Source of the DNA: Candidatus Saccharimonadota bacterium
GTDB taxonomy: Bacteria > Patescibacteriota > Gracilibacteria > UBA1369 > 2-02-FULL-48-14
Length of the DNA stretch: 32,000 nucleotides
Direction of reading: 5' to 3'
Assembly (NCBI GenBank): GCA_965230905.1
Contig: OZ246396.1
Coordinates: forward strand, 300,001-332,000
The position numbers and the translations under genes are program-made. Under the pieces are notes generated by a model, which saw only the letters and a program-made list of their open reading frames with translations, was not told the DNA's origin and ran no database searches. Positions 4,094-32,000 of the stretch are shown piece by piece; positions within the stretch are counted from its first letter, which is position 1; each line of letters starts with the position of its first letter.

Positions 4094-4567
4094 ATGAGTC
4101 TCATCCCCTCCCCACAAATCGATAAAATATGGATGTTTTTTGCACCTCTTTTTGTGATTTTTCTGGGTGCCGATCAAGTGAGCAAAGAATGGGCCCACAA
4201 GAACCTGAGCCTCGAGAACAGCACCGACATTGGCCTGGAACTGCACTACAACGACGGCATTGTGTTTGGATTTGATCTGCCGCTGGCGGTGATTTACCTG
4301 CTCACCGTGGCCATTTTGGCTTTTGGAACGTATTTGGTGATTCAAAATAAACTCTGGCGTGACCACTGGCATTTGGCCGGACTCGCCCTTCTGCTGGCGG
4401 GCGCGCTGGGCAACCTCATCGACCGCATTCGTTTTGGCTACGTTATCGATTTTATAAAAGTTTACTGGTGGCCCACGTTCAACTTAGCCGATGTATGGAT
4501 TGTGCTCGCGGTGTTGGTCTTTAGCTGGGAATTTTTGTTCCGTGGCGAGGGCTTTAAAAAGCTCTAA
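4094..4567 (+). CDS. lspA: Lipoprotein signal peptidase (signal peptidase II)
   Basis: 157 aa with four hydrophobic segments. Signal peptidase II signature stretches LGNLIDRIRFGYVIDF and FNLADVWIVLAV. Confidence 0.85.
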   Translation: MSLIPSPQIDKIWMFFAPLFVIFLGADQVSKEWAHKNLSLENSTDIGLELHYNDGIVFGFDLPLAVIYLLTVAILAFGTYLVIQNKLWRDHWHLAGLALLLAGALGNLIDRIRFGYVIDFIKVYWWPTFNLADVWIVLAVLVFSWEFLFRGEGFKKL

Positions 4568-5622
4568 AGCTTCTGCTCGGCAATTAAGTAGTTTTCACAG
4601 GAGAATAGGTATTGTTCTAAAAATATCTTAGCCATGGGTTCCAAGGATTGTTTTTCGTAAAAAACCAGCATGGATTCTTTGTAAAAATCTTCGTCCACAC
4701 TTCGGTATGAAAGTGGCGCACAATTGTTCGCGAGCAAAATAGCATTTGCACAAAGTCGAGCCGTCCGCTTATTACCATCTTCAAACCCCTGAATGTAGCT
4801 AATACCCACAAGCATGAGCAGGGATTTTGTATACACATCCTTCGCTTTTCGCACTGCCTCAAGCAAACTTTCCAGTTCTTCGCGGATTTGATAAGGCACG
4901 CTCAAAGGCTGATATGAAGTACCCAGCACTCCTACGATGCCCTTTCGTAACCCTGTGCCTACATTGAGATCTGCGATGAGATGCCTGTGTACATTTTCAA
5001 CGTCGCGTAACTTTGGCTCCTTCCAGTCTTCAAGATTTTCTAAAATAAAGTTGAAGGTCTGCTTATGATTGAGGATCATAAAAGCTTCTTCTTTTGGGTG
5101 ACCGCTTGCTTCTTTTCCTTCTCTAAGCAGGCGCTCCGTATCCAATAATGTGTAGGTATTCCCTTCAATTCGGGAAGATTTCCATGACAGTTCAATCACA
5201 AAACGTTCCAATTCTTTTCGGGCGATGACTTCAGAAACATCCATTTTTTTACGATAATAGTGACTGGCATCGTCTAATTTTTTGACTTCTTCGGGGAGAA
5301 ATATATGCGGAGGAAAGTTTTCGAATATACGAAGGAAATATTCTTTTCTCCCCCCGCGATTGTCGATGGGCTGATTGAAATAGATCTTTGGATCATAGGG
5401 CGTCTTCAAGAGTCCTTCCATCGTGAGCCAATAGCGAGTTCCTTTTCTCTGCCCCTCAGTGGCGAGGTATCCTTTTTTCTTCAAAAGACTTAGATCCCTC
5501 CTTAAAGTAGCAGCGGAAGTTTTTTCCGGTAGCACCTTAAACAGATCTGAAAGAGCGTATTTGTTTTCGTAAGACAGGCCTTGGAGAAGCTGATTTTGTC
5601 TTTGATTTAAAATTTCAGTCAT
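4564..5622 (-). CDS. Fic/DOC family protein with N-terminal winged-helix-like domain; catalytic His position is Gln
   Basis: 352 aa. N-terminal TSAATLRRDLSLLKKKGYLATEGQRKGTRYWL (wHTH-like). Inhibitory-helix motif SSRIEG matching [ST]xxxE[GN]. The Fic core motif position reads QGFEDGNKRTAR instead of HxFx[DE]GN[GK]RxxR. The 3-prime end overlaps lspA by 4 nt (convergent). Confidence 0.8.
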   Translation of the reverse strand: MTEILNQRQNQLLQGLSYENKYALSDLFKVLPEKTSAATLRRDLSLLKKKGYLATEGQRKGTRYWLTMEGLLKTPYDPKIYFNQPIDNRGGRKEYFLRIFENFPPHIFLPEEVKKLDDASHYYRKKMDVSEVIARKELERFVIELSWKSSRIEGNTYTLLDTERLLREGKEASGHPKEEAFMILNHKQTFNFILENLEDWKEPKLRDVENVHRHLIADLNVGTGLRKGIVGVLGTSYQPLSVPYQIREELESLLEAVRKAKDVYTKSLLMLVGISYIQGFEDGNKRTARLCANAILLANNCAPLSYRSVDEDFYKESMLVFYEKQSLEPMAKIFLEQYLFSCENYLIAEQKL

Positions 5623-17686: not shown

Positions 17687-20600
17687 TTAGTATTTAACCG
17701 TGTTGCTAGTCAAGGTTGTTGAGCTAACATTTCCAACCCATCGAACTGTAGCGTTGGTCTCGTACCACCAGAAATCTCCAGGGGTAACGGTACCAGAAGC
17801 TGAGGTTCCAAGGCCGATAGAGAACGTGAGAGGATCATCCACCCCAGCGTCTTCGTGGAGCAGGGCTCCAGAATCGAGAGTCAAGGTGTAGGTCTTTGAC
17901 GTTCCTTTCGCCACTTCGAGAGTGGTGTAAGTATCTGTAGTCCCTAGACCACCAGGCACCAAGAAGATGCTAGCGGTAGAGGTGGTCTTAAGACCAACTG
18001 CTCCTTGAGCAATAGTGTCTCCAGATTCCTTGAGGGAAACGGTCAGACCGCTACCAGCGGTAGCAAGAACGAAGTCGTCATCAGCAGTCAGGTCAACCAC
18101 AAGCATTTCGTTGTGGAAGGCAAGCGCGTCAACAAAGATTTCATCACTTGCATCAATTTCCGTTGATTCCGTAACAGCGAATCCGACTTGGTCGTCAGCT
18201 GCCACGATACCTGTAGTAGGTACGGTGAAGAGAACCCAAGTGTCATCAGTGAATTCATCTGCAGTAGCTACTGCAGTTCCGTTGGCAAGAACACCGGAGG
18301 CGTTCAAGGCAACAGCGGTTGCAGCATCTGGAGTAGTGTCGTCATCGAATACTACTGAGATATCAGCGTAGTCAACGTCACTATCATTGTCCACTTCGTC
18401 CACTTTCATCCAGAACGATACGTAGCTGAATGTATTAGGTAGAGTTGTAGCGTAGGTTTCATCCAAAAGGAAGACTCCATCAGAAGCCGTTCCTGTGGTT
18501 TCAACGATTGCAATCCCACCAGATCCGTCGATGTAATCACCGGCGGTTGTAGTGATAGTAGCTTCACCGTTAGCAATAGCTCCAGCTACGTCGTCCACGT
18601 CATTTTCGTCGTCTCCAGCGAGACCTGTACGAATTTGGATCTTCTCTTGAGCGTTAGCCGATACCGTGAAGACAAAGGCGTCGTCAGTAGAAGAAACAGA
18701 ACGAGATCCAGAAGGTGAGGTAGAAGCGAGAGCCAAAGTAGGCTTGCTTTCGTACACTACCATTTGGTTGGTTCCAGTGAAGTAACCAATTCCAGGCAGA
18801 GAGTAGAAAAGAGCCAAGTTATCTGCCAAGACAGCATCATCATCATCCAAGGTAGTCATTGTCATTGCTGTGGCTGTACTGACAGCGGTGAGAACGAAAA
18901 TTGAATCGCTACCATCTGTCCAAGTCGTATCAGCACCACCCATGATCAATGTTCCAACAGGGAAAAGGTTTGTACCACAAGTATCTACAACAAGCGTATT
19001 GCTTGATCCAACGGCCGCAGTCGTATGATTGGAGGCATTGTTGACCAAACAGTCAGCTGCAATCCATGTAGGTGTACCGAAATCAAGGTCAGAAGCAGCG
19101 GCTACAGCTGAATCGATCTTATCAGCCTTGTAGGTTTCTCCGCTTGAGTCTGCAATTGCTTCAAAGTTATTGAAGGCAACAGCCAGGTCAACGAAGGTCG
19201 CTGCATCCGCACCACTAGAAATGGTGTTGAGGTCTGCGTACACAGTCATAGTAGCGCTATCATCTGCAGGTACGTAGAACGTAAGTCCTGAGAATTGAGC
19301 TGTACCATTTGAAAGGGTTCCGCTTCCTGTTTTAGTAGTTCCGTCTACATCTTCGTACTCAATAGTGAGATCTACTACGTTGTCGTCGTAATCTCCCAAA
19401 GCAGCTGTAATAGCGCTTCGTCGGTTATTGAGAGAAAGGTTTTCAACAGTGAATGCCTCCAAAGTGGAAGTGAATTCAAATGAAGCAATTTCTACATCCG
19501 TAGCTCCGGCAACAACAATGTTTTCACGTGCTGTGCTAGAAGAAACGGCAACGGTCAATGAACCTCCAGAAGAGGCTATAGCATAGGCCGTTGGTGTAGT
19601 GGCGTTAACTGTACCGGTTGTGCTTCCTCCTGCCGTAGCAGAGAAGCTGTTTCCATCTTCATCTTCAACTGTCACATTGGCAGCAGAAGAGATACCGAAG
19701 GCAACTTGTTGTGTAGTAGCATTGTTAGAGATGTCTCCGTATACATAAGCAACGGCAGTTTCTCCAGCCTCAATCTCCCAGTCTACACTGTCGAAGACAG
19801 CGAGGAAGGTAGAAGAGTTGATGGACTTAGCCGCAGCAATTATGTTTCCGTCGCTGTCTTCTAACCAAACACTTCCTACTACAGCCGTAAGACCTACTGC
19901 GTGGTCAGCTGAGTCAGAAGCAGTGTCCCAGTCGGCATTAGCGTCATCGTCGTAGTAAGCCTGAACAGTCAGGTCTGTAACACGACAAGAGTTGGAGTCT
20001 CCACAAGCGAAGGTTAGTCCAGTGAAAGGAACGTCTTCAGAACCCTTTACCCAAGTCTTGATTCCAGGTGTGGAGGCAAGAGAGAGTGCGAGAGAAGGTG
20101 TCTTAACCGTCATCGTCTTAGACGTGATGGCTGATGAAGGCACAAGTACTGAAGAGTTAGTGAGAGTCTTGTTGTTAGAATCCTTCAATTGAGGATAGGT
20201 AGCTCCAAGATCAAGACCAGCTGTGAAAGTCATAGCATTCAACGTAGAAACGTTAGCGATGTCCATGGTCAAAGCAAGGTTGAGCTCTTCACCAGCCTCC
20301 ATTTCGAAGTCATCAGTGAAAAGATGGTAAGCCGCAGCGTCATCAGTTCCAGTTCCAATTGCAGTCGAACCACCTTGAGCGGTAACGAAAGAAGAGGAAT
20401 CCACTCCAGCATAGAGGGCAGAATCAGTGTCTGTGTTTACAATCTTCACATCAGTGAAGTTTGCAACTCCAGCGGCACTGATAAGACCTTCAGAATCATC
20501 GTCAGTATCAGCGGACGTATCCATAGTGATAGGGAAGCTATCAAAGGTTACGTCAGTTACTGAAACGATGCTGAAATCGAGGACTGATACGTCACGAGCG

Positions 20601-22390
20601 TTGGTTGCAACGTCCGAAGCGGAAGGTCCGTCAGAAGAGATAGTAATATCTCCTCCTTCGAGCAGAGAGTAAGAACAGTCTGCGTCGGTAGTGGAGTCAC
20701 AAACTACGCTTCCAGTGTCTGCGCTATCTGTGTCTCCGTTGTAAGCCGTACGAGTTACTGCCATACCAGATCCGTAGAGAGCTCCACGTGAAAACACGTC
20801 GGTGCTTTGATCAATATACACCTTAACGGTGTCATCGGTACGACCTGTATTGAAGTCAGCAGTTACATAGAAGCTCTTAGAAGCTCCTTTAGCGATACAG
20901 TAACCATCAGAGTTTTCACACTCGTCAGAGTCAGCATCGAAATCACCAGAGATGTCGAAGCGGATAACGTCGAGATCATCTACCATAGCTACGGTAGCGA
21001 TTGCTTCAGCGTCGTCACCAGATACGTAGAGGTTGAAGTTTTCAACATCAGCTGTGTTGATACTTCCAGCAAGGTAAAGGCCAAGTTCCTCAACTCCAGC
21101 TGCTTCAGTAGCAGAAGAGAGTTTGAACTTAGCCACGGTTGCACTGTCTTCTCCTACTTGAGGATTGTCCGTGTTACCATTCTTTTCAATAGTAACCGTT
21201 CCTGCATCCGTAGTAGAGATGGTGTGCTTATCAGCTTGAGCAGGGAAGTCCCCGTCAACAGTAGCACCAGCAGCATCTACCTTAGCAGCGCTTGCGATTT
21301 CAAGACCAATTTCACCGGTAGTAGTGTAGTCACCCATGTCCATACGAACAGAGATGGTTCGGGTTTCCCCAGAATCAACGTCAATGTTGTAGGTGAAGGT
21401 AGCTTCGTTGTCTGTAGAACTAATAGTAGTTCCAGCGGTCAAACGATTGCTTCCTTCGTAGAGGTACACTTGGTGAGTAGAAGCCAATGAAGTGATTCCG
21501 TAGTGGTGAACACTGAGAGAATCGACAGTAACGTCTCCACCGTTAGCAGTGAAATCCCAAGCAGCCAACTCTACAGAAGTAGCGTTAGAAGGGATGGTCA
21601 TAGCATCAGGAGATTCGTCGCTAACTTCAACGGTAAGATCACCATCGCTGGTAGGATCTTCTTCCTCTTCATCGTCAGCACGATACTCAGGTTCCTGAGC
21701 TCGGTTAACCATAAGGGCTGCTTGACCACGAGTTACGTTGTAAGCAGGGTAGAAGTTACCATTGTCGTAACCGTTGATTACGCTCCAAGCCCACGCAGTA
21801 CTTACGTACCAAGTAGCGCTTTCTTCGTACCAAGCTCCCTCGTCCACATCAGGGAATTCGTCGAGAGAAGCATCAACGTTAGCGAGACCGAAAGCTTCCA
21901 CAGCAACCTTCGCAAATTCTGCGCGGTTCATGTAAGCATTTGGGTCGTATTCACCTGTAAGGTCTCCGTCAGCATCAGTGCGTCCGCTTACGAATCCGTA
22001 AAGCTCAGCAGTGTTAACGTAGTTTTCAAGTGAGTAGCTAGAGCTTACGTCAGTAAACCCAGCATCGTAATCTTCGTCTACAGCGTCCTCACCGAGGGCA
22101 CCAAGTACGAGGATTTTCGCAGCTTGACCACGTGTAAGGTAGTCATCTACTCCGAAGTCACCATTGTCATAACCGGTCATCCAGCCTTCGTCTGAAGCTG
22201 CGTCAACTGCATCAGCCGCGTAGTGCGAGCTTGATACGTCGTCGAAACTTTCAGCAGAAGCAATTGATGTGAAGCTTACAAGAGAAGCCAACACAGCAAG
22301 AATGCTGAATCCAGCTATGGATTTTTGGATCTTTCGAAAAGCGAAAGAGATATCCATATATATAGGATTAAAATAAAGAGATAAAAACAT
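17687..22390 (-). CDS. Giant secreted cell-surface protein (1567 aa) with three N-terminal SLH domains
   Basis: Signal peptide (FSILAVLASLVSFTSIASA/ES). SLH repeats (FDDVSSSHYAADAVD..., FTDVSSSYSLENYVN..., FPDVDEGAWYEES...). Acidic hinge RADDEEEEDPTSDGD. More than 1300 aa of Thr/Ser/Asp/Ala-rich repeated beta-type modules. An alternative start ATG at 22357 (MDISFAFRK...) is equally possible. Confidence 0.85.
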   Translation of the reverse strand: MFLSLYFNPIYMDISFAFRKIQKSIAGFSILAVLASLVSFTSIASAESFDDVSSSHYAADAVDAASDEGWMTGYDNGDFGVDDYLTRGQAAKILVLGALGEDAVDEDYDAGFTDVSSSYSLENYVNTAELYGFVSGRTDADGDLTGEYDPNAYMNRAEFAKVAVEAFGLANVDASLDEFPDVDEGAWYEESATWYVSTAWAWSVINGYDNGNFYPAYNVTRGQAALMVNRAQEPEYRADDEEEEDPTSDGDLTVEVSDESPDAMTIPSNATSVELAAWDFTANGGDVTVDSLSVHHYGITSLASTHQVYLYEGSNRLTAGTTISSTDNEATFTYNIDVDSGETRTISVRMDMGDYTTTGEIGLEIASAAKVDAAGATVDGDFPAQADKHTISTTDAGTVTIEKNGNTDNPQVGEDSATVAKFKLSSATEAAGVEELGLYLAGSINTADVENFNLYVSGDDAEAIATVAMVDDLDVIRFDISGDFDADSDECENSDGYCIAKGASKSFYVTADFNTGRTDDTVKVYIDQSTDVFSRGALYGSGMAVTRTAYNGDTDSADTGSVVCDSTTDADCSYSLLEGGDITISSDGPSASDVATNARDVSVLDFSIVSVTDVTFDSFPITMDTSADTDDDSEGLISAAGVANFTDVKIVNTDTDSALYAGVDSSSFVTAQGGSTAIGTGTDDAAAYHLFTDDFEMEAGEELNLALTMDIANVSTLNAMTFTAGLDLGATYPQLKDSNNKTLTNSSVLVPSSAITSKTMTVKTPSLALSLASTPGIKTWVKGSEDVPFTGLTFACGDSNSCRVTDLTVQAYYDDDANADWDTASDSADHAVGLTAVVGSVWLEDSDGNIIAAAKSINSSTFLAVFDSVDWEIEAGETAVAYVYGDISNNATTQQVAFGISSAANVTVEDEDGNSFSATAGGSTTGTVNATTPTAYAIASSGGSLTVAVSSSTARENIVVAGATDVEIASFEFTSTLEAFTVENLSLNNRRSAITAALGDYDDNVVDLTIEYEDVDGTTKTGSGTLSNGTAQFSGLTFYVPADDSATMTVYADLNTISSGADAATFVDLAVAFNNFEAIADSSGETYKADKIDSAVAAASDLDFGTPTWIAADCLVNNASNHTTAAVGSSNTLVVDTCGTNLFPVGTLIMGGADTTWTDGSDSIFVLTAVSTATAMTMTTLDDDDAVLADNLALFYSLPGIGYFTGTNQMVVYESKPTLALASTSPSGSRSVSSTDDAFVFTVSANAQEKIQIRTGLAGDDENDVDDVAGAIANGEATITTTAGDYIDGSGGIAIVETTGTASDGVFLLDETYATTLPNTFSYVSFWMKVDEVDNDSDVDYADISVVFDDDTTPDAATAVALNASGVLANGTAVATADEFTDDTWVLFTVPTTGIVAADDQVGFAVTESTEIDASDEIFVDALAFHNEMLVVDLTADDDFVLATAGSGLTVSLKESGDTIAQGAVGLKTTSTASIFLVPGGLGTTDTYTTLEVAKGTSKTYTLTLDSGALLHEDAGVDDPLTFSIGLGTSASGTVTPGDFWWYETNATVRWVGNVSSTTLTSNTVKY
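21698..22246 (-). other. SLH-domain triplet (N-terminal wall anchor) of the 1567-aa protein
   Basis: Residues ~49-231. Each repeat ends in a TRGQAA or NRAEFA helix. Confidence 0.8.
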
Positions 22391-22707
22391 CTGGGTCGTT
22401 CAGTACCCAGAAAACAGAATAAGCAACAATAAAAAGGCCAGAATAAGCTAAAAAAAGTTTATCCACCCCTTCGACCTAAAAAGGTAGTAGATCCATAAGT
22501 AACAGGATGTTTTTATTTTTCGCAGACCCTGAGGGGTCCGCGTGCCGTGATTTCAAGGAGCAAAGACTATAAGGATCGTAAGTAACGTAAGGGGCTCGTA
22601 ATTGTCTTTTGTCTAGCAGACACTTTGTGTCCGCCTTGTGTCTACTTAAACGCGAGGAGTAGACATGTCGTTTCAGCTTCTTTGTTGACAGGACAGTTCA
22701 TGTAGTG

Positions 22708-22782
22708 TGGTAGTCCCAAGGGGAATCGAACCCCTATTTCAGGAATGAGAATCCGGTGTCCTAACCGTTAGACGATGGGACC
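22708..22782 (-). tRNA. tRNA-Glu (anticodon CUC), CCA encoded
   Basis: Manual cloverleaf: GGTCCCA TC GTCT AACGGTT AGGAC A CCGGA TTCTCAT TCCTG AAAT AGGGG TTCGATT CCCCT TGGGACT A CCA. The acceptor stem has 7 bp including one G-U. There is one C-U mismatch in the anticodon stem. The D arm is Glu-type. Confidence 0.85.
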
Positions 22783-22814
22783 ACAAGGGGGCGCTGATTT
22801 AAGGAACTTCGGAC

Positions 22815-22843
22815 AGTTTATTCACTCTTGTCTAATCTTTCAA
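22815..22843 (-). promoter_or_regulatory. Candidate tRNA-Glu promoter (TTGAAA - 17 nt - TAAACT)
   Basis: Reverse strand reads atcTTGAAAgattagacaagagtgaaTAAACTgtcc. The -10 ends 32 nt before the mature 5-prime end. The architecture matches the tRNA-Lys promoter. Confidence 0.4.
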
Positions 22844-23110
22844 GATTTTAGTAGACAAAGTAGACGAGTACTTGACAAGTCGATGGCGACTATACACTAC
22901 GACTCTGATAGGTGACCAGTAAAAATGTTGACTAATCAACATGCTATTCTCCTTTATTTCAAGGCATTTTTAGCACTATTCCCAAACAGATGTTTTATGA
23001 TTTAACTTCGATTAACAAAATAATCTCCAATTTGTAAATAATCTTAGCCATCGGGTTTGTATAGGCGAAATCTGTCCACTCTAACAGGTTGGAAAGACTA
23101 CTTCACAACC

Positions 23111-23170
23111 ATTCCGCCTATACACGCAAATTCCGCCTATACACGCACTTTCATTCCGACTAATCAAAAC
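23111..23170 (+). repeat. Tandem ATTCCGCCTATACACGCA x2 followed by ATTCCGACTAATCA
   Basis: Exact 18-mers at 23111-23128 and 23130-23147 (19-bp period). A related half-palindrome lies at 23153-23166. The inverted copy ATTTCGCCTATACA lies at 23058-23071. Confidence 0.85.
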
Positions 23171-23296
23171 CTTCTTTTAGCTTCAAACAAGCCATTATTA
23201 TGGCCTTTTGCAGGAGTTAATCATTGAACTTGCTTTTTTACATAATTGTTTTATTTTATATATTGCTTTAAGTTGAATTTCCAATAAAGTGTTCGT

Positions 23297-24397
23297 ATGA
23301 ATGACTTTTACTCCGTACTCGGGCTTGAAAAAAACGCCACAGAAGTCGATATAAAGAAGGCGTATCGAAAAAAGGCTCAGCAGTACCACCCAGATAAAAA
23401 CCCCGGCGATAAGGCCGCTGAGGCGAATTTTAAGGAGGTGCAGCAGGCGTACGACGTGCTTGGAGATTCTGGCAAGCGTTCTCAGTATGATCAGTATGGA
23501 AGTGCGGGGCCCGGCCAAGGATTCCCGGGTGGAGCGGGTGGTTTCGACCCGAATCAATTTGGCGGCTTTGCGGATATTTTTGAGAGCTTCTTTGGTCAGG
23601 GATTTGGCGGGCGCAGCGGCGGCGGACGAAAAGCGGGGCCTACGCGCGGCAAGGATATTGAAACGGACCTAACGGTGAAGTTTGAGGAAGCAGTTTTTGG
23701 AACCACCAAGCATTTGGAGATCACCAAGCCTGAGGTCTGCGACCATTGCAACGGGAAAGGAAATGAGCCGGGTACGACAATCAAGACATGTGCAGGGTGC
23801 CATGGACAGGGGCAGGTACGCAGCACTCGCCAGACTATTTTGGGCGCAATCAGCAGTGTACATTTGTGTCCACAGTGTCAAGGACGTGGCGAGGTTCCAG
23901 ATCAAATGTGCACAAAATGCAATGGACAGACGCGTATTCGCAAAAGTGTGGAGGTGGACGTGAACATTCCCAAAGGCATTGAAGATGGCACGACCATTCG
24001 CTTAAAAGGAAAGGGGTCGGCGGGTGGGCTGGGCGGCGAGTACGGAGACCTGTTCCTGCATATTACGGTTGCGCCTCACCCAAAGTTTTCACGGGAGGGA
24101 AAGACCATTTACTCTGCAGAAACGATTCCCCTGGTGCAGGCCGTGTTGGGCGCCACGATTAAGGTGGATACCATTCATGGGAAGGAGCAGCTTAAGGTTC
24201 CGGCTGGGACTCAGGATGGAACGGTGCTCACTATTAAAGGAAAGGGCTCACCGTCTTTGAAGTCCGAGGCGCTGGGAGACCATAAGCTTACACTGCACCT
24301 GAAGGTGCCGGAGAAGTTGACGAAGAAGGAGAAGGAACTCTATGAACAGCTGGCTGAGGGCGCGGGCGTGGAGGTGAATAAAGGGACTTGGTTTTAA
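23297..24397 (+). CDS. dnaJ: Molecular chaperone DnaJ (type I Hsp40)
   Basis: J domain with HPDKN, a Gly/Phe-rich region, four CxxCxG zinc-finger repeats (CDHCNGKG, CAGCHGQG, CPQCQGRG, CTKCNGQT) and a C-terminal substrate-binding domain. Confidence 0.95.
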   Translation: MNDFYSVLGLEKNATEVDIKKAYRKKAQQYHPDKNPGDKAAEANFKEVQQAYDVLGDSGKRSQYDQYGSAGPGQGFPGGAGGFDPNQFGGFADIFESFFGQGFGGRSGGGRKAGPTRGKDIETDLTVKFEEAVFGTTKHLEITKPEVCDHCNGKGNEPGTTIKTCAGCHGQGQVRSTRQTILGAISSVHLCPQCQGRGEVPDQMCTKCNGQTRIRKSVEVDVNIPKGIEDGTTIRLKGKGSAGGLGGEYGDLFLHITVAPHPKFSREGKTIYSAETIPLVQAVLGATIKVDTIHGKEQLKVPAGTQDGTVLTIKGKGSPSLKSEALGDHKLTLHLKVPEKLTKKEKELYEQLAEGAGVEVNKGTWF

Positions 24398-24478
24398 GAG
24401 TTATCCACAAGCGCTTTGTCGAAGATTGTGCAAAAGTTTTTGCGTGCGGTGGCGGCCATTTTAACCTGGAGAGTGGTC

Positions 24479-24505
24479 AAAAAAGCCTGTCGCTGAGGAC
24501 AGGTC
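24479..24505 (-). terminator. Candidate terminator downstream of tRNA-Lys
   Basis: Reverse strand reads CCUGUC-CUCAGC-GACAGG followed by CUUUUUUG, about 25 nt after the tRNA 3-prime end. Confidence 0.5.
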
Positions 24506-24527
24506 TGAATCGTCTACTTTTGTGTAA

Positions 24528-24603
24528 TGGTGGGTCAGCCGGGAATTGAACCCGGGACCATTAGCTTAAAAGGCTATTGCTCTACCAACTGAGCTACTGA
24601 CCC
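24528..24603 (-). tRNA. tRNA-Lys (anticodon UUU), CCA encoded
   Basis: Manual cloverleaf: GGGTCAG TA GCTC AGTTGGT AGAGC A ATAGC CTTTTAA GCTAA TGGTC CCGGG TTCAATT CCCGG CTGACCC A CCA. The acceptor, D and T stems are perfect. Confidence 0.9.
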
Positions 24604-24633
24604 ACGCAGTGGGCAAGTAGTACCCACGCGGGT

Positions 24634-24662
24634 ATTTTATGGATCTAACCTGCAGGATGCAA
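24634..24662 (-). promoter_or_regulatory. Candidate tRNA-Lys promoter (TTGCAT - 17 nt - TAAAAT)
   Basis: Reverse strand reads agcTTGCATcctgcaggttagatccaTAAAATacccgcg. The -10 ends 30 nt before the mature tRNA 5-prime end. Confidence 0.45.
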
Positions 24663-24666
24663 GCTA

Positions 24667-25215
24667 TTATTCGTTGCGCTGGAAAAGACTGACTACCACG
24701 ATGGCCAGAACAGGTAGAGCGAACCAGATATTGTAGTTGTCGACGATGGTTTGGATGAACTGAGACTCCTGATAGAGATTGCTTTCGAAGCCGGCACGGA
24801 TGCTGCCGGTAACGAAGGAACCGCCCGTGAGGTAAACCAAGATGGTGCTGACCATGAGACCGGCGTTGAGGAACCCGAAGCTCAGGTTACCGAGAATACG
24901 GGTCACCACGGATTGCTCTGGAGGCATATCCACTAAAAAGCCGCCCTTGATGGCGAGGATGACTATGGTGAGCACGAAGATGAAGATTTTTATGAGCACC
25001 AAGGCCTGATCACCCATTTCGCCCTGAAGCGTGGGCGCGGCCGGGAGGAGATAGGTTTGGAGCAGGTTACCAATACCGTCGGCCGTGAGGATGGCCATGT
25101 AGGTGGAAATGATCACCTTGAGAGTCTGGTTCCTTCCTATAATAAAGCTGTACGCGATAACGATCCCGAAGAAAACGAGAATGAATAGGTCCCAAGAAAG
25201 TCGAATGTTATCCAC
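24667..25215 (-). CDS. Integral membrane protein, possibly CvpA-like
   Basis: 182 aa, GTG start, 4-5 hydrophobic helices. The N-terminal SWDLFILVFFGIVIAYSFIIGRNQ...AILTADGIGNLL resembles the CvpA family layout. The family call is weak. Confidence 0.6.
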   Translation of the reverse strand: MDNIRLSWDLFILVFFGIVIAYSFIIGRNQTLKVIISTYMAILTADGIGNLLQTYLLPAAPTLQGEMGDQALVLIKIFIFVLTIVILAIKGGFLVDMPPEQSVVTRILGNLSFGFLNAGLMVSTILVYLTGGSFVTGSIRAGFESNLYQESQFIQTIVDNYNIWFALPVLAIVVVSLFQRNE

Positions 25216-25300
25216 GGCGTGGGTGAATGAAGGCGAAGTTATTTTAACAAAAAGCGGCTGGATAACAAAGTTAATCTTATTACAGAGTGGTTCGCCTGGG

Positions 25301-25473
25301 TGACTAGTCGGAATTTTTGGATGTGCGTGTCAACTAGTCAGATTTTTGGTTTTGACTAGTCGGAATTATGCACAATTGAACCTGTGAAGATTTTTTTGAC
25401 TAGTCAGAATGTGCATTTTGACTAGTCGGAATTCCGCCTATACAATGTTGTCTAGTTTTTGACTAGTCGGATC
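25301..25473 (+). repeat. Array of six same-orientation TGACTAGTC(G/A)GAAT repeats (iteron/operator-like)
   Basis: Copies start at 25301, 25331 (degenerate), 25353, 25397, 25419 and 25460. Spacings are 30/22/44/22/41 bp. Related ATTCCGCCTATACA half-sites lie at 25431-25444 and 25499-25512. Confidence 0.85.
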
Positions 25474-25553
25474 GGTTTTTTGCTTTACAATAAGCCACTT
25501 TTCGCCTATACACTTGTGATAAGGCGACACTATGTGTTCTAATCACCTTCCCA

Positions 25554-26045
25554 ATGAATAAAGACTTTCTCACCTTAGAGGAAGCGGCTCATGCTTTGAA
25601 AAAGTCCACCCAGACTATTCGACGAATGATCAAGAAAGGTGAACTGCAAGCGCAACGGATCAAGACGCCGCAGGGCTTTCACTATGTTGTGAGGCGGGCC
25701 GAAGTGAGCGGGATGGCTGAAGCTGAACCGGAGGCAGAAATGGTGTTTTATAATTCGCCTATACAAAATGCGCTAGAGCCACAGGAGGATCAGGAAATTC
25801 CCGTGTTGATTAATCAAACTCAAATTCCGACTAATCAGAATGCAGTTGAGCCGCTCCCAGAGCCAGCTCAGGTACCCCTAGACAAAAAGGAGCCAGTTGT
25901 ATTCTATTTTCCACCCCTCCCCCCTGCCCCATCCGTGGAGGCGCGGGACTTGCTACGGCTGATTGAACGGCAGCACAAGGAACATTTGGGACTGATTCGA
26001 ATCATTGAAAGGCTCCAAGATGAGCTACGTCGTCAAGGAAATTGA
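25554..26045 (+). CDS. Excisionase/MerR-like HTH (HTH_17-type) DNA-binding protein with Pro/Gln-rich linker and C-terminal coiled coil
   Basis: 163 aa. The N-terminal FLTLEEAAHALKKSTQTIRRMIKKGELQAQRIKTPQGFHYVVRRAEV fits the excisionase-family HTH pattern. The C-terminal DLLRLIERQHKEHLGLIRIIERLQDELRRQ is heptad-like. Confidence 0.7.
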   Translation: MNKDFLTLEEAAHALKKSTQTIRRMIKKGELQAQRIKTPQGFHYVVRRAEVSGMAEAEPEAEMVFYNSPIQNALEPQEDQEIPVLINQTQIPTNQNAVEPLPEPAQVPLDKKEPVVFYFPPLPPAPSVEARDLLRLIERQHKEHLGLIRIIERLQDELRRQGN

Positions 26046-26104
26046 TTTGCAGCTGTGGGCCAGCGGTTTTAGACTGCTAGCGATTTCCTATTCACTACGG
26101 CCTG

Positions 26105-27634
26105 ATGAAACTCTACGACAACCCCTGGGGATTTTCCGTTGAACATACGAATCCCTTTCAGCTCTTTTCGCTACTCCAAGAGGTGGCACAATCTGAGCAA
26201 AAGGCGCAAGACATTGTAGATTTGTCGCGTGGGGATCCCGGTTACGGGTTCAGCCCATCGGTGCGCGGACGGGAGTTTTTGTCGTTTTTGCTTTTTTTGG
26301 ACACGAAGCTGAATCACTCCAAGCGTTTGTTCGCAACTTACAGCGCCGAGGATGAAAAGGAACTTTTGGAAGAGATTGCGGTGTTTGCGCACAGTGCGTA
26401 CGTGCCGGCCCTGGCCACGCGGTATTTGGGGGATTTGAGCGAGTTTATTCAAAGGTGTATTCAGATTGCTGGAAGTGAAGGTGTGGAGATGCGGCCGTAC
26501 GATGTGCTGCACGAGATCTTTAAACATTCCACTATTAGCGGCGGGACTTACCACGACCCACGAGGAGAAAAACTGGTGCGGATGATTGTTTCGTGGTGGC
26601 ATAAGAAGAACGTGGCGACGGCGTTCAGCTATGAGGATTTGATTTTTACTTCCGGGGCGTCACATGCGATTGGAACACTTTTTAAACTGCTGGGCGAAGA
26701 AGGGCTGCAGTACCTCACCCATGGTGACAGCGTGCTCATCTCCTCCCCTGCTTACAACCCGTATAATGCGATTTTGCAGCACCGGGGCCTGCAGACCGTG
26801 AGCATCTCTATTAACCCTACGACCGGGAAAATTGAGGAGCGAAGTTTTGAGGTTTTGAAGACGGCCAAAGGTGTAAAACTGTTGGTGCTGATTGATCCGA
26901 ACAACCCGACGGGCTTTTCCATGGACGACGAAACGATGGAGGTCTTGGCGAAATTTGCGAAAGAACAGGATGCCATCATTATTACGGATGAGGTTTACAG
27001 CGCGTTTTTTGAGGATAGAAAATCGATTATAGACCTGTGCCCGGAGCGTACGCTGCGCATTCAAGCACGATCGAAGATTGAGCGGAGCACGGGACTCCGG
27101 TTTGGAGATGTGCTGATTTGCCCGGAAGCCAATAAGTATTTGAGTGAAGTGCGTTTGAAAGATTTGCTCCGCGAAGGTCAGGACTTTAAGAAGGCGTTTA
27201 TGTTTGCGAAGGGACCTGGCGGCGTGCATGGGGAATTCCAACACACCACTTTTGTAAGCGGGCCTGATCAGTACTTGGGTGCGGCGCACATTGTGCTCGG
27301 CGAAGACGAACGCAAAAAATATCGCGAAACCATGCGCAAGAACCAGGAGGTGTTTTGTAAGACACTGGGCCTCCCCCACAAAGGGAACCTCTACTACACC
27401 CTATTCGACATGAATGAAGTGCCCGATTGCAAAACCCAAGACCTCCCCCCAGAACAAAAAATCTACGACCTGGCGAAGTTGGGCGTTATTTACATTCCCG
27501 CCAATTTGTTTTTCTCCGAAGAAGACCGTACTTTGAAGTCCCGTGTGAACACGGTTCGCGCCTCGCTGGCGAATGGCACTCCCGATAAAATCAAACGTGC
27601 CGCTGAAATAACGCGGCAATACCTTACTCATTAA
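26105..27634 (+). CDS. Long-form class I/II PLP-dependent aminotransferase, aspartate 4-decarboxylase (AsdA)-like
   Basis: 509 aa. Has LIDPNNPTG and the PLP-Lys context ARSKIERSTGLRFG. Extended terminal regions (NPFQL, LSRGDPGY, YYTLFDM, VRASLAN) match what I recall of AsdA-type enzymes. Family-level call only. Confidence 0.7.
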   Translation: MKLYDNPWGFSVEHTNPFQLFSLLQEVAQSEQKAQDIVDLSRGDPGYGFSPSVRGREFLSFLLFLDTKLNHSKRLFATYSAEDEKELLEEIAVFAHSAYVPALATRYLGDLSEFIQRCIQIAGSEGVEMRPYDVLHEIFKHSTISGGTYHDPRGEKLVRMIVSWWHKKNVATAFSYEDLIFTSGASHAIGTLFKLLGEEGLQYLTHGDSVLISSPAYNPYNAILQHRGLQTVSISINPTTGKIEERSFEVLKTAKGVKLLVLIDPNNPTGFSMDDETMEVLAKFAKEQDAIIITDEVYSAFFEDRKSIIDLCPERTLRIQARSKIERSTGLRFGDVLICPEANKYLSEVRLKDLLREGQDFKKAFMFAKGPGGVHGEFQHTTFVSGPDQYLGAAHIVLGEDERKKYRETMRKNQEVFCKTLGLPHKGNLYYTLFDMNEVPDCKTQDLPPEQKIYDLAKLGVIYIPANLFFSEEDRTLKSRVNTVRASLANGTPDKIKRAAEITRQYLTH

Positions 27635-27647
27635 TCCACCCTGCCCC

Positions 27648-28895
27648 ATGTCACTTTTTGAAAACACGCTCAAGCAAATCCGAAAGGCTTCCCTGCTCAT
27701 GAATCTGCCCGCGAACGTTGAGGAAGTTTTGAGTCATCCCGAACGCATCATTGAAGTGAGTTTGCCGGTGGTTATGGACAATGGACACCTTCGGGTTTTC
27801 CAGGCTTTCCGTGTACAGCACAACAGCATCCGTGGACCTTATAAAGGGGGTATTCGTTACCACCCACAAGTGGACATGGACGAGGTGAAAGCGCTGTCTA
27901 CTTGGATGACCATGAAGTGCGCGGTGGTGGGCATTCCACTGGGCGGAGCGAAGGGAGGAATTGTGATGGACCCCAAGAGTTTGTCTGCGCGGGAGTTGGA
28001 AGCGGTGACCCGCGAGTACGCGCGTGCGATGACTCCGTTCATTGGACCGGAAATCGATGTGCCGGCGCCGGATGTTTACACGAATTCTCAAATCATGGCG
28101 TGGATTGCGGATGAATATTCCAAAATCAAAGGACACAACGTGCTCGGCGTGGTGACGGGAAAAGCTATTGAAACGGGTGGGTCTTTAGGACGTGACAGTG
28201 CGACCAGCCAAGGGGGTGTTTATATTATTGAAGAATATTTGCAGTCCGTTGGAAAACAGGCCGCTGGGATGACCGTAGCGGTGCAGGGATTCGGAAACGC
28301 GGGCTCACACGTGGCTCGGCTGCTTTCGGAGCTAGGAATGAAAGTAATTGCGATTTCCGATTCTAAGAGCGCGCTGCACTGCGCCGATGGAATTGATGCG
28401 AGTGCCGCCATGGTGTGCAAGTTGGAGAAAGGACAAGTGGGCGAATGCACGCCCGTGGGCGCGAAATGTGACATCATTACTAATGAGCAGTTGCTGGCGC
28501 TACCTTGTGACATTTTAGTACTGTCTGCGCTGGAAAATCAGGTTCGAGTGGACAATGCGGACAGTGTGCAGGCTCGTTTAATTGTGGAATTGGCGAATGG
28601 TCCTGTGACACCCGAGGCCGACGAAATTTTGGCGCGCAAAGGGGTGCCAGTGATTCCGGATATTTTGGCGAATGCTGGAGGAGTGACGGTGAGCTACTTC
28701 GAACTCGTGCAGAATCAAATGAACTACTATTGGAGTTTGGAAGAGGTTCTTGGAAAGTTGAAGCCCATTATGCAAAACGCCTGGCGCGACGTACACGGGA
28801 ATGCGGTGAAGTTTGGGTGTACGTATCGTGAGGCGGCGTTCATTACGGCGCTGAGAAAGTTGGAGGCGGCGATTACGATGAGGAGGGGGAAGTAG
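27648..28895 (+). CDS. gdhA: Glutamate dehydrogenase (Glu/Leu/Phe/Val dehydrogenase family)
   Basis: 415 aa. Has KGGIRYHPQVDMDEVKALSTWMTMKCAVVGIPLGGAKGGI and the Rossmann motif VAVQGFGNAGSHVARLL. Lies 13 nt downstream of the aminotransferase gene. Confidence 0.9.
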   Translation: MSLFENTLKQIRKASLLMNLPANVEEVLSHPERIIEVSLPVVMDNGHLRVFQAFRVQHNSIRGPYKGGIRYHPQVDMDEVKALSTWMTMKCAVVGIPLGGAKGGIVMDPKSLSARELEAVTREYARAMTPFIGPEIDVPAPDVYTNSQIMAWIADEYSKIKGHNVLGVVTGKAIETGGSLGRDSATSQGGVYIIEEYLQSVGKQAAGMTVAVQGFGNAGSHVARLLSELGMKVIAISDSKSALHCADGIDASAAMVCKLEKGQVGECTPVGAKCDIITNEQLLALPCDILVLSALENQVRVDNADSVQARLIVELANGPVTPEADEILARKGVPVIPDILANAGGVTVSYFELVQNQMNYYWSLEEVLGKLKPIMQNAWRDVHGNAVKFGCTYREAAFITALRKLEAAITMRRGK

Positions 28896-29674: not shown

Positions 29675-29808
29675 ATCAGAGGTCTTGCCAAAGCTTCCCA
29701 CTATCGTCCAATTCACCGCCAGCGGTGAACTCCTCAACATCGGTAAATTCGCGCAAGGCGGTGACGACTTCCCTTGCATCGGCTAAGCAATAATGTAAAA
29801 ATTCCGGC

Positions 29809-32000
29809 ATGAAATACATCTATGCATTCGTCGAAGGGAATAAAGATATGAAAGATTTGCTGGGAGGAAAAGGTGCGAACCTCGCGGAAATGACCAATAT
29901 GGGTCTGCCTGTGCCGCCCGGATTCACCATCACGACGGAGGCTTGTAACTACTATTTGGAGAACCACGACTACCCTGCTGGATTTTTTGAGGAGATGAAT
30001 GAGAAGCTGGATGAGTTGCAGCACACGATGGGGAAAAATTTTGGCGATGGCAGCAATCCCCTGCTGGTTTCTGTGCGATCGGGCGCAAGGGTATCGATGC
30101 CGGGAATGATGGATACGATTTTGAACCTTGGGCTGAACGACCAAACGGTGGAAGGACTCATTGAAAAAACGCAGAATCCACGGTTTTCGTACGACTCGTA
30201 TAGGCGCTTTGTGACTATGTTTGGAAACGTGGTTTTGAACATTCCGCATGACCACTTTGAAGAGGCACTTGAATCTGCAAAGAAGACAAAAGGCGTCACT
30301 CTAGACACGGACATGACAGCGGAGGATTGGAAGGCGCTCGTGGCAGTGTTTAAGCAAATTGTTTTGGACGCGAGTGGCAAGCCCTTTCCTGAAAATCCTA
30401 TCGACCAATTGAAGCTCGCGATTTTGGCTGTGTTTAGTTCTTGGAATAGCAAACGAGCGATTACGTATCGCAATTTGCACGGCATGGCGCACAACATGGG
30501 AACGGCGGTGAATGTGCAATCGATGGTGTTTGGAAACATGGGAGAGGACAGCGGGACCGGAGTGGCGTTCACGCGAAATCCATCGACCGGAGAGAAGGAA
30601 TTTTTTGGAGAATTTTTGTTCAATGCGCAGGGAGAAGATGTGGTGGCGGGAATCCGTACGCCCAAGAAAATTATTGAGATGCAGGAATCTATGCCCGCGA
30701 TGTTTGACCAATTGAATGAGGTCCAAAAGACTTTGGAGAATCACTACCACGACATGCAGGACATCGAGTTCACGATTGAGTCGGGCCGTCTGTTTATGCT
30801 GCAAACCCGCAATGGAAAACGAACCGCGCGGGCGGCCGTGAAGGTGGCGGTGGACATGGTGGAAGAAGGACTCATTACGAAAACTGAGGCGATTCGACGT
30901 ATTGATGCGAATCAGCTCAATGCACTTTTGCATCCGTTCATTGACCCTAAGGCGCCCAAGATTGTTTTGGCAAAAGGCTTGCCTGCGTCGCCGGGTGCGG
31001 CTGTGGGAAAGATTGTTTTCTCTGCGGATGAAGCGTACCGAATGGCGGAAGAGGGTGAAAAAGTGATCTTGGTGAGAAAGGAAACGAGCCCCGAAGATAT
31101 TCACGGAATGCACTCGGCGCAGGGAATTTTGACTTCTACGGGAGGAATGACCAGCCACGCGGCGGTGGTTGCTCGCGGAATGGGAAAACCTTGTATTGCG
31201 GGTTGTAAAGAAGCGCACGTGGACGACAAAATCAAGACGCTGGAGATCAACGGACAGGTGTTTGGCGAAGGAGAAATTATTTCTTTGGACGGATCAACGG
31301 GCGAAGTGATGAAAGGCGAAATGCCAACGGTGGAAGCGGCGCTGACGGGAGAATTTGAAGAGCTGATGAGCTGGGCGGATGAGATTCGAACACTCAAAAT
31401 ACGCACGAATGCGGATACGCCGCACGATGCACAAGTGGCGCGCAGACTGGGCGCCGAAGGAATTGGGCTCTGCCGAACGGAGCACATGTTCTTTGATGAA
31501 GATCGCATTATGCTCGTGCGCCAGATGATTTTGTCTCAGAGTGTGGAGTCACGAAAGCGCGCGCTCGACAAATTGCTGCCGATGCAACGCGATGACTTTA
31601 AGGGGATTTTTAAGGCTATGGACGGCTTCCCTGTTACGATCCGTTTGCTCGACCCACCGCTGCACGAGTTCTTGCCAAATACTGAAGGGAAAATCAAGGC
31701 CGTGGCGCTAGAAATGGGTGTGGACTATGTGCAACTCCAAAAAATGGTGGACGCTTTGCATGAACTCAACCCTATGCTCGGTCACCGTGGAGTTCGTTTG
31801 GGTATCACCTACCCTGAGATTTATGAAATGCAGGCACGGGCGATTTTTGAAGCGGGCAAGGCGATGAGCGCCGAAGGCGTGAAAGTGATTGCCGAGATTG
31901 AAATTCCTCTGGTTGGACACGTGAATGAACTCAAAACCATGCGAACCTTGATTGAAAAAGTGGCGCAAGAAATGGGGCCGCTGAACTTTGAATGGAAAGT
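29809..32000 (+). CDS. ppdK: Pyruvate, phosphate dikinase, partial (continues beyond the right edge)
   Basis: Absent from the ORF track because it is open at the edge. From the ATG at 29809: MKYIYAFVEGNKDMKDLLGGKGANLAEMTNMGLPVPPGFTITTEAC. Phospho-His motif GGMTSHAAVVARGMGKPCI. GIGLCRTEHMFF, RLLDPPLHEFLP and NPMLGHRGVRLGI are also present. The minus-strand ORFs 29734-31508 are antisense shadows. Confidence 0.95.
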   Translation, partial: MKYIYAFVEGNKDMKDLLGGKGANLAEMTNMGLPVPPGFTITTEACNYYLENHDYPAGFFEEMNEKLDELQHTMGKNFGDGSNPLLVSVRSGARVSMPGMMDTILNLGLNDQTVEGLIEKTQNPRFSYDSYRRFVTMFGNVVLNIPHDHFEEALESAKKTKGVTLDTDMTAEDWKALVAVFKQIVLDASGKPFPENPIDQLKLAILAVFSSWNSKRAITYRNLHGMAHNMGTAVNVQSMVFGNMGEDSGTGVAFTRNPSTGEKEFFGEFLFNAQGEDVVAGIRTPKKIIEMQESMPAMFDQLNEVQKTLENHYHDMQDIEFTIESGRLFMLQTRNGKRTARAAVKVAVDMVEEGLITKTEAIRRIDANQLNALLHPFIDPKAPKIVLAKGLPASPGAAVGKIVFSADEAYRMAEEGEKVILVRKETSPEDIHGMHSAQGILTSTGGMTSHAAVVARGMGKPCIAGCKEAHVDDKIKTLEINGQVFGEGEIISLDGSTGEVMKGEMPTVEAALTGEFEELMSWADEIRTLKIRTNADTPHDAQVARRLGAEGIGLCRTEHMFFDEDRIMLVRQMILSQSVESRKRALDKLLPMQRDDFKGIFKAMDGFPVTIRLLDPPLHEFLPNTEGKIKAVALEMGVDYVQLQKMVDALHELNPMLGHRGVRLGITYPEIYEMQARAIFEAGKAMSAEGVKVIAEIEIPLVGHVNELKTMRTLIEKVAQEMGPLNFEWK

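Follow-up and report, generated by a model that had tools for sequence, protein, structure and literature searches.

Several bacterial and phage proteins that read arrays of repeated DNA sites through a winged helix-turn-helix (HTH) domain have been described, and it is useful to compare them with a locus in a 32,000-nucleotide stretch of a Candidatus Saccharimonadota genome (contig OZ246396.1, positions 300,001 to 332,000), referred to here as the window. The element in question is an array of short same-orientation repeats in the 338-bp gap (25216-25553) in front of the gene for a 163-amino acid (aa) HTH protein. BldC, RacA, Xis, Cox and RdfS all occupy their repeated or clustered target sites as multimeric assemblies (PMC5859096, PMC4914108, PMC3936717). 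BldC of Streptomyces, a chromosomal regulator and not a phage protein, shows cooperative binding to same-orientation repeats, whose number varies, and distorts the DNA to which it binds (PMC5859096). RacA of Bacillus subtilis (PDB 5I44) consists of an N-terminal MerR-like winged HTH, a variable disordered linker and a C-terminal coiled coil. Its target sites are palindromes in clusters that carry TGAC/GTCA at their outer positions, and its C-domain oligomerises and raises the DNA affinity (PMC4914108). The Cox protein of phage P2 has at least six boxes per target, and its C-terminal part drives oligomerisation (PMC3936717, PMC7498355). P2 Cox, 186 Apl and lambda Xis are recombination directionality factors that also act as repressors (PMC3936717, PMC7498355), Cox regulating its own synthesis by covering promoter elements.

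The reading that we favour, with moderate confidence, is that the array forms the central part of a multi-cluster, cooperative and autoregulatory operator complex for the adjacent 163-aa protein, and that this complex is possibly looped. The gap is bounded by a minus-strand open reading frame (ORF) at 24667-25215 and by the ATG of the 163-aa ORF at 25554. An earlier note on this DNA had described six repeats in the gap, and its gap bounds, six coordinates, shared orientation, T-runs and five spacings were all confirmed. The six TGACTAGTC(G/A)GA sites are located on the plus strand with start-to-start distances of 30, 22, 44, 22 and 41 bp, and a T-run precedes four of them. The core GACTAGTC occurs five times in the window, where 0.20 copies are expected, and all five copies lie inside the array. 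For the 14-mer with up to three mismatches, the window contains 13 matches against 2.05 expected, and none of 100 shuffles gave 13.

The window was scanned with the degenerate 12-mer TG[AT][CAT]TA[GAT][TG]C[GA][GA]A, which covers both TGACTAGTCGGA and TGTATAGGCGGA. The zero-mismatch matches fall into three clusters, with one further chance-like match. The array described earlier is therefore real, but it is only one of three clusters, and the other two had been missed. About 18 sites are found within 2.97 kb, and besides the chance-like match the other 29 kb of the window are empty. The sites have the form of a 12-18 bp pseudo-palindrome, ATT(T/C)(T/C)G-NNTANN-C(G/A)(G/A)AAT. In the array the asymmetry of the half-sites is constant, with the T-rich ATTTTGACT on the left and the C-type AGTCGGAAT on the right, and this makes the sites look like direct repeats. 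The A-type and B-type sites have TGnnTAGnCGGA in common and both types are present in every genome, which suggests that one protein probably reads both. The A-type TGACTAGTCGGAAT and the B-type TGTATAGGCGGAAT have TGnnTAGnCGGAAT in common. The positions of all these features are collected in Table 1.

Table 1. Motif sites, promoter-like elements and genes of the locus (positions are those of the window)
Feature	Position	Strand	Remark
Cluster (i)	22874-23166		between tRNA-Glu and dnaJ
Composite weak sites TTGACAAGTCG...CGACTATACACT, start of cluster (i)	22874-22901	+	conserved in orthologues
18-bp near-palindrome ATGTTGACTAATCAACAT, cluster (i)	22925-22942	none	motif scan, orthologue alignment
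B-type site TGTATAGGCGAA, cluster (i)	23058-23069	+	motif scan
Three sites of cluster (i)	23111-23166	-	TGTATAGGCGGAAT at 23111 and 23130, TGATTAGTCGGAAT at 23153
Cluster (ii)			reported array plus inverted B-type sites 25431-25444 and 25499-25512
Site 1, TGACTAGTCGGAAT (A-type)	25301-25314	+	equivalent position occupied in close orthologues
Site 2, CAACTAGTCAGATT, degenerate	25331-25344	+	motif search, alignment
Site 3, TGACTAGTCGGAAT	25353-25366	+	T-run before site; motif search, alignment
Non-motif block TGCACAATTGAACCTGT between sites 3 and 4	25369-25385	+	conserved in alignment
Site 4, TGACTAGTCAGAAT	25397-25410	+	motif search, spacing to site 5
Site 5, TGACTAGTCGGAAT	25419-25432	+	motif search, alignment
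B-type site, TGTATAGGCGGAAT on minus strand	25431-25444	-	inverted, overlaps site 5
Site 6, TGACTAGTCGGATC	25460-25473	+	motif search, spacing to next B site
Inverted B-type site TTTTCGCCTATACA	25499-25512	motif on -	two mismatches from ATTCCGCCTATACA
Cluster (iii)	25752-25765, 25806-25817, 25824-25841		inside HTH coding sequence (+200 to +290)
B-type site ATTCGCCTATACAA	25752-25765	-	encodes NSPIQ; motif scan, codon alignment
Palindrome TTGATTAATCAA	25806-25817	none	encodes LINQ; motif scan, codon alignment
18-bp near-palindrome ATTCCGACTAATCAGAAT	25824-25841	-	encodes IPTNQN; motif scan, codon alignment
Promoter-like TTGACT-N17-TACAAT	25418-25446	+	10 of 12 consensus match; built from site 5 and inverted B site
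Most conserved block, with promoter-like TTTACA-N17-TATACA	25484-25512	+	promoter call read from sequence
Alternative promoter-like TTGTGA-N18-TG-n-TCTAAT	25514-25543	+	putative; ends 10 nt before ATG
SLH gene, 1567 aa	17687-22390	-	beyond tRNA-Glu
tRNA-Glu	22708-22782	-	other side of cluster (i) from dnaJ
dnaJ	23297-24397	+	candidate target of cluster (i)
Membrane-protein gene, 182 aa, divergent	24667-25215	-	no family match; always left neighbour of array
HTH gene, 163 aa	25554-26045	+	winged HTH 1-55, disordered linker ~56-128, long C-terminal helix 130-161
Aminotransferase	26105-27634	+	directly downstream of HTH gene
Glutamate dehydrogenase (GDH)	27648-28895	+	after aminotransferase

Some details of the earlier description have to be modified. 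The sequence ATTCCGCCTATACA is indeed present at 25431-25444, but it is not merely a related half-site: it is a member of this motif family that appears as TGTATAGGCGGAAT on the opposite strand. Its supposed recurrence at 25499-25512 is in fact TTTTCGCCTATACA, which differs from it in two positions. The perfect 18-bp palindrome ATTCCGACTAGTCGGAAT, of which the repeat was said to be the right half, does not occur in the window. Even the nearest sequences differ from it at 2-3 positions; one of the two closest, with two mismatches each, is ATTCCGACTAATCAGAAT at 25824-25841 in the HTH coding sequence. Helical phasing of the array, also proposed earlier, is modest within this window taken alone, with Rayleigh R values of 0.70 at 10.5 bp and 0.87 at 10.7 bp that are equalled by about 4% of random placements. 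The conservation of the spacings across species is stronger evidence for phasing than this test.

Homologues of the 163-aa protein are found as full-length proteins from metagenomes, and most genome records of the homologous loci name Candidatus Peribacteria (Peregrinibacteria, candidate phyla radiation, CPR). The window, too, comes from a bacterium of the Candidatus Peribacteria. The 330 bp before the HTH start were aligned for 20 species, with protein identities down to about 35%. The array is kept site by site in these relatives, and the sites retain their order, orientation and spacing. Sites 4 and 5 are separated by 22-23 bp in most of the 20 species and by 24 bp in one. The distance between sites 5 and 6 is 40-41 bp, except in locus L010, where it is 51 bp and an extra B site corresponds to about one more helical turn. 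The distance from site 6 to the B site of the promoter is 43 bp centre-to-centre in 17 of the 20 species. Inside the HTH gene, the centre spacing of 51 + 21 = 72 bp is likewise conserved. One to two extra B-type sites, TTCGCCTA(T/G)(A/C)C, are located between sites 5 and 6 in L010, L012, L014 and L016; they are placed in steps of about 10-12 bp and lengthen the array by roughly whole helical turns.

The sequence of individual sites may change while the position is occupied. In the lineage of L007 and L020 the TGTATAGGCGGA type replaces the TGACTAGTCGGA type at array positions, which indicates that the two types substitute for each other there. Site 2 is kept as GTCAACTAGTCAGA in nearly all species, even where other sites have switched type, and the palindrome TGTTGATTAATCAACA stands in for site 5 in some species. 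The upstream 210 bp are conserved about as well as the codons of the HTH domain, and better in several pairs. For example, the identity with L004 is 88% for these 210 bp, 70% for the HTH domain and 51% for the rest of the gene. The alignment also contains conserved blocks outside the motif, namely TGCACAATTGAACCTGT and CTTTACAATAAGCCA-N4-TCGCCTATACACTTGTGATAAGGCG...TGTGTTCTAAT. The block TGCACAATTGAACCTGT may be a site for a second factor. Its AACCTGT element reappears inverted as AACAGGTT (23083-23090) in the dnaJ-side cluster, in the same place relative to the motif sites.

The distribution of the motif around the HTH gene was compared in 17 homologous loci from species-representative genomes, each covering up to 20 kb (10-kb flanks). 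In 15 of them zero-mismatch matches occur from -300 to -25 and from +160 to +310 relative to the HTH start. The same loci contain a distal cluster at -2.3 to -2.9 kb, provided that they extend to this distance, and their flanks are otherwise essentially empty. The other two loci, which hold distant partial HTH_17 paralogues, gave no motif matches. A dispersed repeat of the repetitive extragenic palindromic (REP) or miniature inverted-repeat transposable element (MITE) type can thus be rejected, as copies beyond the three clusters were found neither in the window nor in the ~20-kb orthologue flanks. Cluster (i) is located about 130-420 bp upstream of the dnaJ start and 2.2-2.7 kb upstream of the HTH gene, and most orthologous loci of sufficient length have it at -2.3 to -2.9 kb. 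Its sites aim at tRNA-Glu, as a mirror image of the main array, which aims at the HTH gene.

A scan of metagenomes for paired sites gave 14 stretches. Arrays of the Peribacteria type adjoin an HTH homologue in all three cases, and the other 11 stretches, which have no HTH homologue, are unrelated: they include 42-bp tandem repeats and simple GACTAGTCGGAC runs, and most are located on contigs whose GC content is quite different (54-72%). The pattern used was stringent, so that the scan is only weak evidence of absence elsewhere. Two of the tandem repeats (L028 4950-5334 and L034 1380-1700, on contigs of 54-55% GC) have a 42-bp unit with CTGACTAGTCGGAC and no HTH homologue, and they represent a different element.

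Selection on the intragenic sites of cluster (iii) acts at the level of DNA. The linker of the protein (residues ~56-128) is variable save for short peptides, for example NSPIQN and VL(T/I)NQ..(L/P)TNQ. These conserved peptides are in-frame translations of the motif: TCGCCTATACAA gives SPIQ, TTGACTAATCAA gives LTNQ and TTGTATAGGCGA gives LYRR. In other lineages the column of 25806-25817 contains TCGCCTATACA(A/G) (SPIQ) or CCGACTTATCAA (PTYQ), and in the lineage of L007 and L020 the position of 25824-25841 contains TTGTATAGGCGA (LYRR) or TTGTATAGTCGA (LYSR). One column of the protein alignment accordingly holds LTNQ, LINQ or LTSQ on the one hand and SPIQ or PTYQ on the other, and at the next site PTNQ, LTNQ, LTSQ or LTSR are replaced by LYRR or LYSR, the peptide tracking the motif type. 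Such radical exchanges of amino acids, with a sequence of the motif family retained each time, show that the DNA and not the peptide is constrained. The residues of these peptides have predicted local distance difference test (pLDDT) values of 56-72 in the AlphaFold2 model. This is a clear example of binding-type sites within a coding sequence that dictate the sole conserved peptides of a disordered linker.

The assignment of the protein to the excisionase-type HTH proteins is supported by profile searches and by structure prediction, which give a winged HTH, excisionase-type families and the fold of BldC, RacA, Xis and Cox. The protein matches HTH_17 with 35.3 bits (cut-off 27) and TIGR01764 with 29.6 bits (cut-off 28.8). 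The PHROG excisionase families also match, and Pfam Phage_Cox does so weakly. When solved structures were searched with a profile of the family at E up to 10, P2 Cox (4LHF, E = 4.8e-4) and Pukovnik Xis were the only matches. The AlphaFold2 model has a mean pLDDT of 77; the winged HTH and the 32-residue C-terminal helix are confident and the linker is of low confidence. The C-terminal helix probably forms a coiled coil. In a Foldseek comparison with the PDB the top matches are the BldC-DNA complexes 6AMA and 6AMK (probability 1.00, 33-34% identity over ~50-56 aligned columns, target-normalised template modelling score 0.75-0.79). They are followed by RacA, Pukovnik Xis, P2 Cox and RdfS, with proteins of the MerR family further down. 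The family comprises 49 clusters (50% identity) at E<1e-30 and 129 at E<1e-10, many of them full length with 150-240 aa. The linker and the C-terminal helix are conserved in the family, the linker being variable in the alignment. The search for close viral relatives gave one weak N-terminal match only.

It is important to compare this protein and its sites with the systems introduced above. BldC is the best structural match and like the 163-aa protein has a MerR-like winged HTH. However, BldC gave no sequence-level match in the profile search of solved structures, and with 68 aa it consists of the winged HTH only, while here a linker of ~70 aa and the 32-residue helix follow. The BldC repeats, AATT-N4-C, on which the protein oligomerises head to tail, abut at about one helical turn, whereas the present sites are non-abutting pseudo-palindromes of 12-18 bp, two or four turns apart, with extra inverted sites. 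RacA has the same order of winged HTH, disordered variable linker and C-terminal coiled coil, which is predicted for our protein, but the profile search of solved structures detected no sequence homology between the two. The ram sites of RacA are GC-rich 14-mers that extend over ~600 kb around the origin and serve chromosome anchoring via DivIVA. The sites described here have an AT-richer TGACTAGTCA core, and all of those seen are within 3 kb around the protein's own gene, where they overlap promoter-like elements. P2 Cox does match at the sequence level (PDB 4LHF). However, the Cox boxes measure 9 bp, with 10-11 bp from one to the next, and the DNA wraps around a continuous protein filament, whereas the spacings here are 22-44 bp (2-4 turns) and inverted sites are added. 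In addition, Cox belongs to a phage and has an integrase as its partner, while no mobile element or recombinase was detected here and the locus is conserved housekeeping DNA.

The parC/ParR system of plasmid R1 is similar in its layout. Two phased sets of same-orientation repeats flank the promoter of the operon that encodes the binder, with assembly and autorepression both relying on a single array. ParR has a ribbon-helix-helix fold, and the ParM NTPase is encoded in its operon, whereas the protein described here has a winged HTH and its operon encodes an aminotransferase and GDH. Strictly, the 163-aa protein is not a member of the BldC, RacA or recombination directionality factor families. 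Its fold and its multimeric reading of sites are those of BldC, Cox and Xis, and its architecture is that of RacA. The layout of the operator, with three clusters of which one is located in the gene, matches none of the systems compared.

The sequence of the promoter-like TTGACT-N17-TACAAT is conserved in the upstream alignment. In the most conserved block, the -10-like hexamer TATACA is located inside the inverted B-type site TTCGCCTATACA (25501-25512, motif on the minus strand). The sequence upstream of the HTH ATG (25538-25556) contains no Shine-Dalgarno sequence. Since the conserved alternative element TG-n-TCTAAT ends 10 nt from the ATG, the HTH mRNA may be near-leaderless. The conserved AATCACCTT(T/C)C at 25538-25556 resembles the 3' end of 16S rRNA and not its complement. 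The repeated TTGACT was also considered as a set of stacked -35 elements, and this was rejected because the lineage of L007 and L020 has TTGTAT at the same positions. A noncoding RNA, a leader or a riboswitch in the gap was considered as well and rejected; Rfam gave only two tRNAs (22000-26200) and the RNAalifold covariation term is -0.06 kcal/mol.

The gene block SLH / tRNA-Glu / dnaJ / tRNA-Lys / membrane protein / gap / HTH / aminotransferase / GDH / pyruvate phosphate dikinase (PPDK) keeps its synteny in the loci for which genes were called, down to a protein identity of 38%, a 251-aa ORF following GDH and preceding PPDK in the window. The distance between the HTH gene and the next gene varies from a 4-bp overlap to 59 bp, on the same strand in every locus examined, and no terminator-like site was found. 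The aminotransferase and GDH are probably co-transcribed with the HTH gene.

These features allow us to propose the following arrangement for the autoregulatory operator. Units of the protein would bind along one face of the DNA, at sites separated by about two or four helical turns. The asymmetry of the half-sites and the phased T-runs would give the array a direction, and the DNA is probably curved by the T-runs. The C-terminal helices could connect the bound units in the manner known from RacA and from the C-terminal region of Cox, and this would make the binding cooperative. Since the -35- and -10-like hexamers of the promoter or promoters of the HTH gene are overlapped by inverted sites, occupancy of these sites would repress the HTH-aminotransferase-GDH operon and probably influence the membrane-protein gene, which is divergent. 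As auxiliary operators, clusters (iii) and (i) would take part by looping or bridging, with loops of ~250-330 bp and ~2.2 kb, respectively, and cluster (i) is placed where dnaJ and the tRNA-Glu/SLH unit could be affected. The identity of the binder, its stoichiometry, the looping and the sign of the regulation are inferred. The cooperative array that the earlier note had tied to the HTH gene withstood the two of its refuting conditions that computation can address, a dispersed repeat and a lack of conservation in relatives, and it agrees with the fold; the 163-aa protein remains the candidate binder.

Several observations weigh against this proposal. Another factor could read the motif. Among the aligned homologues the recognition helix gave no pattern of covariation with the motif type, and in the lineage with TGTATAGGCGGA arrays it is nearly identical to that of the A-type lineages, which deprives the 163-aa protein of support from co-evolution. 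The ~18 sites within 3 kb, some of them well off the promoters, exceed the needs of simple autorepression, and this hints at an architectural role. The promoter calls are matches to a consensus, the phylum's own promoters being uncharacterised, and the -35-like hexamers are found at three different spacings from TATACA (13, 15 and 17 bp). In addition, the distribution of sites was seen over a syntenic neighbourhood of ~35 kb per genome.

The number of sites leads to an alternative that we regard as possible, though rather unlikely: a RacA-like architectural or centromere-like complex. Coiled-coil bridging would then build a large nucleoprotein structure at one locus for anchoring, segregation or local compaction, with autoregulation as a by-product (compare parC/ParR, or parS in spo0J). 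RacA is among the best fold matches, the order of domains agrees with the published one of an N-terminal MerR-like winged HTH, variable disordered linker and C-terminal coiled coil (PMC4914108), and the site core TGAC-TA-GTCA has the outer TGAC/GTCA in common with the ram site TGACGCCGGCGTCA (PMC4914108). The three clusters, with some sites intragenic and others 130-420 bp from the nearest start codon, and the strict synteny of the whole block across the class would also fit. However, RacA was not matched in the profile search of solved structures even with E up to 10, and its sites are spread over ~600 kb near the origin and not confined to 3 kb. No skew switch occurs within +/-10 kb of the locus, and the window ORFs scanned include no DivIVA or ParA partner. 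The overlap of several sites with promoter-like elements at invariant distances argues for coupling to transcription instead. In a more far-reaching form of this idea, which we consider unlikely, the three clusters would be a single-locus body similar to a centromere or kinetochore; a RacA-like protein would nucleate on ~18 phased sites and, with its C-terminal helix as the bridge between them, would serve to anchor, organise or segregate the small CPR chromosome, with autoregulation secondary. It is quite unlikely, too, that an unlinked DNA-binding protein other than this one, for example a global regulator, reads the motif and has the HTH gene as one conserved target. The missing covariation, the status of the HTH protein as a candidate binder and the location of cluster (i), 2.2-2.7 kb away beside other genes, could be explained in this way. 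The sites are, however, present at every HTH orthologue, also within the coding sequence at fixed spacing, and are found nowhere else in the flanks examined. Peribacteria-type arrays that were detected in metagenomes by the DNA pattern alone always adjoin an HTH homologue, and the fold class of this protein is known to bind such arrays.

The earlier note had left open autoregulation or an origin-, partition- or recombination-type site; autoregulation stays the leading function, while the other three are disfavoured by GC skew at third codon positions (GC3 skew), by the lack of an NTPase and by the lack of any detected recombinase, respectively. A chromosomal replication origin, or iteron-like repeats associated with one and read by the HTH protein as an initiator or accessory factor, is very unlikely. 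Phased direct repeats with T-runs do resemble iterons, and the overall GC skew of the window rises from ~22 kb, a rise that reflects gene orientation and composition and is not a switch. For Candidatus Peribacter riflensis, unspecified 'short repeats' are reported near a skew-defined origin that carries no gene-content mark (PMC4736985), but no skew switch occurs at the present locus. The plus-strand GC3 skew is positive on both sides of the locus (+0.45 in the SLH gene on the left, +0.13 to +0.40 in the genes on the right), with the same sign over +/-10 kb in nine other genomes. The lack of a flip in these 10 genomes disfavours an origin. DnaA boxes are not enriched (9 matches, 5.75 expected), and dnaA, dnaN or rep genes were not detected in the window; on the skew and the DnaA-box count oriC was rejected. 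A relic or active recombination module, with an excisionase-type protein on arm-type sites of an element beside tRNA-Lys or tRNA-Glu, is extremely unlikely and already largely refuted. It would account for the profile matches to TIGR01764, the PHROG excisionase families, Cox and Xis and for the two tRNA genes that flank the region. Against it, no integrase or other recombinase was detected either in the window or among the genes listed within +/-6 kb of six orthologous loci, the locus is surrounded by housekeeping genes whose order is fixed across a class-level clade, close viral relatives are missing, and the extra linker and coiled coil are atypical of recombination directionality factors. 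More generally, no transposase, integrase, ParA/ParB, DnaA or Rep domains were found among the window ORFs scanned. A Tn7/Mu-like transposon end, suggested by two motif clusters 2.2 kb apart near tRNAs, was rejected with no transposase detected and with aminotransferase, GDH and PPDK downstream. A plasmid-type partition centromere does not fit, as the same genes are located downstream and no ParA or ParM was found in the window.

To our knowledge, almost no gene regulation has been characterised experimentally in the CPR bacteria, which are uncultivated. The locus offers a testable CPR regulator-operator pair, with a defined motif, a 163-aa candidate binder and exact predictions for sites and spacings. 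Should the protein be simply an autoregulator, it would connect the RacA type of architecture with the way in which BldC, Cox and Xis read sites as multimers. If it is RacA-like in function, the winged-HTH/coiled-coil chromosome organisers would extend beyond the Firmicutes.

Some neighbouring genes can be described briefly. The PPDK gene is located on the plus strand, starts near 29809 and continues past the end of the window, so that the ORF list does not contain it. The listed minus-strand ORFs at 29734-31218 are spurious, since the codon-position skew fits coding on the plus strand. The dnaJ gene is solitary, as neither dnaK nor grpE is located nearby, and near its start it carries a conserved promoter-like TTGC-N-ATAAAGT of its own. 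Control of dnaJ by CIRCE/HrcA was considered and rejected, as the window contains no CIRCE element. Two SLH-domain proteins, probably of the S-layer or cell envelope, are encoded at 14574-16919 (781 aa) and 17687-22390 (1567 aa), both on the strand marked as lagging by GC3 skew; the larger gene is the constant left neighbour of the tRNA-Glu/dnaJ region in the orthologous loci. The ORF at 4564-5622 encodes a 352-aa protein with an N-terminal DeoR-like HTH and a Fic/DOC domain.

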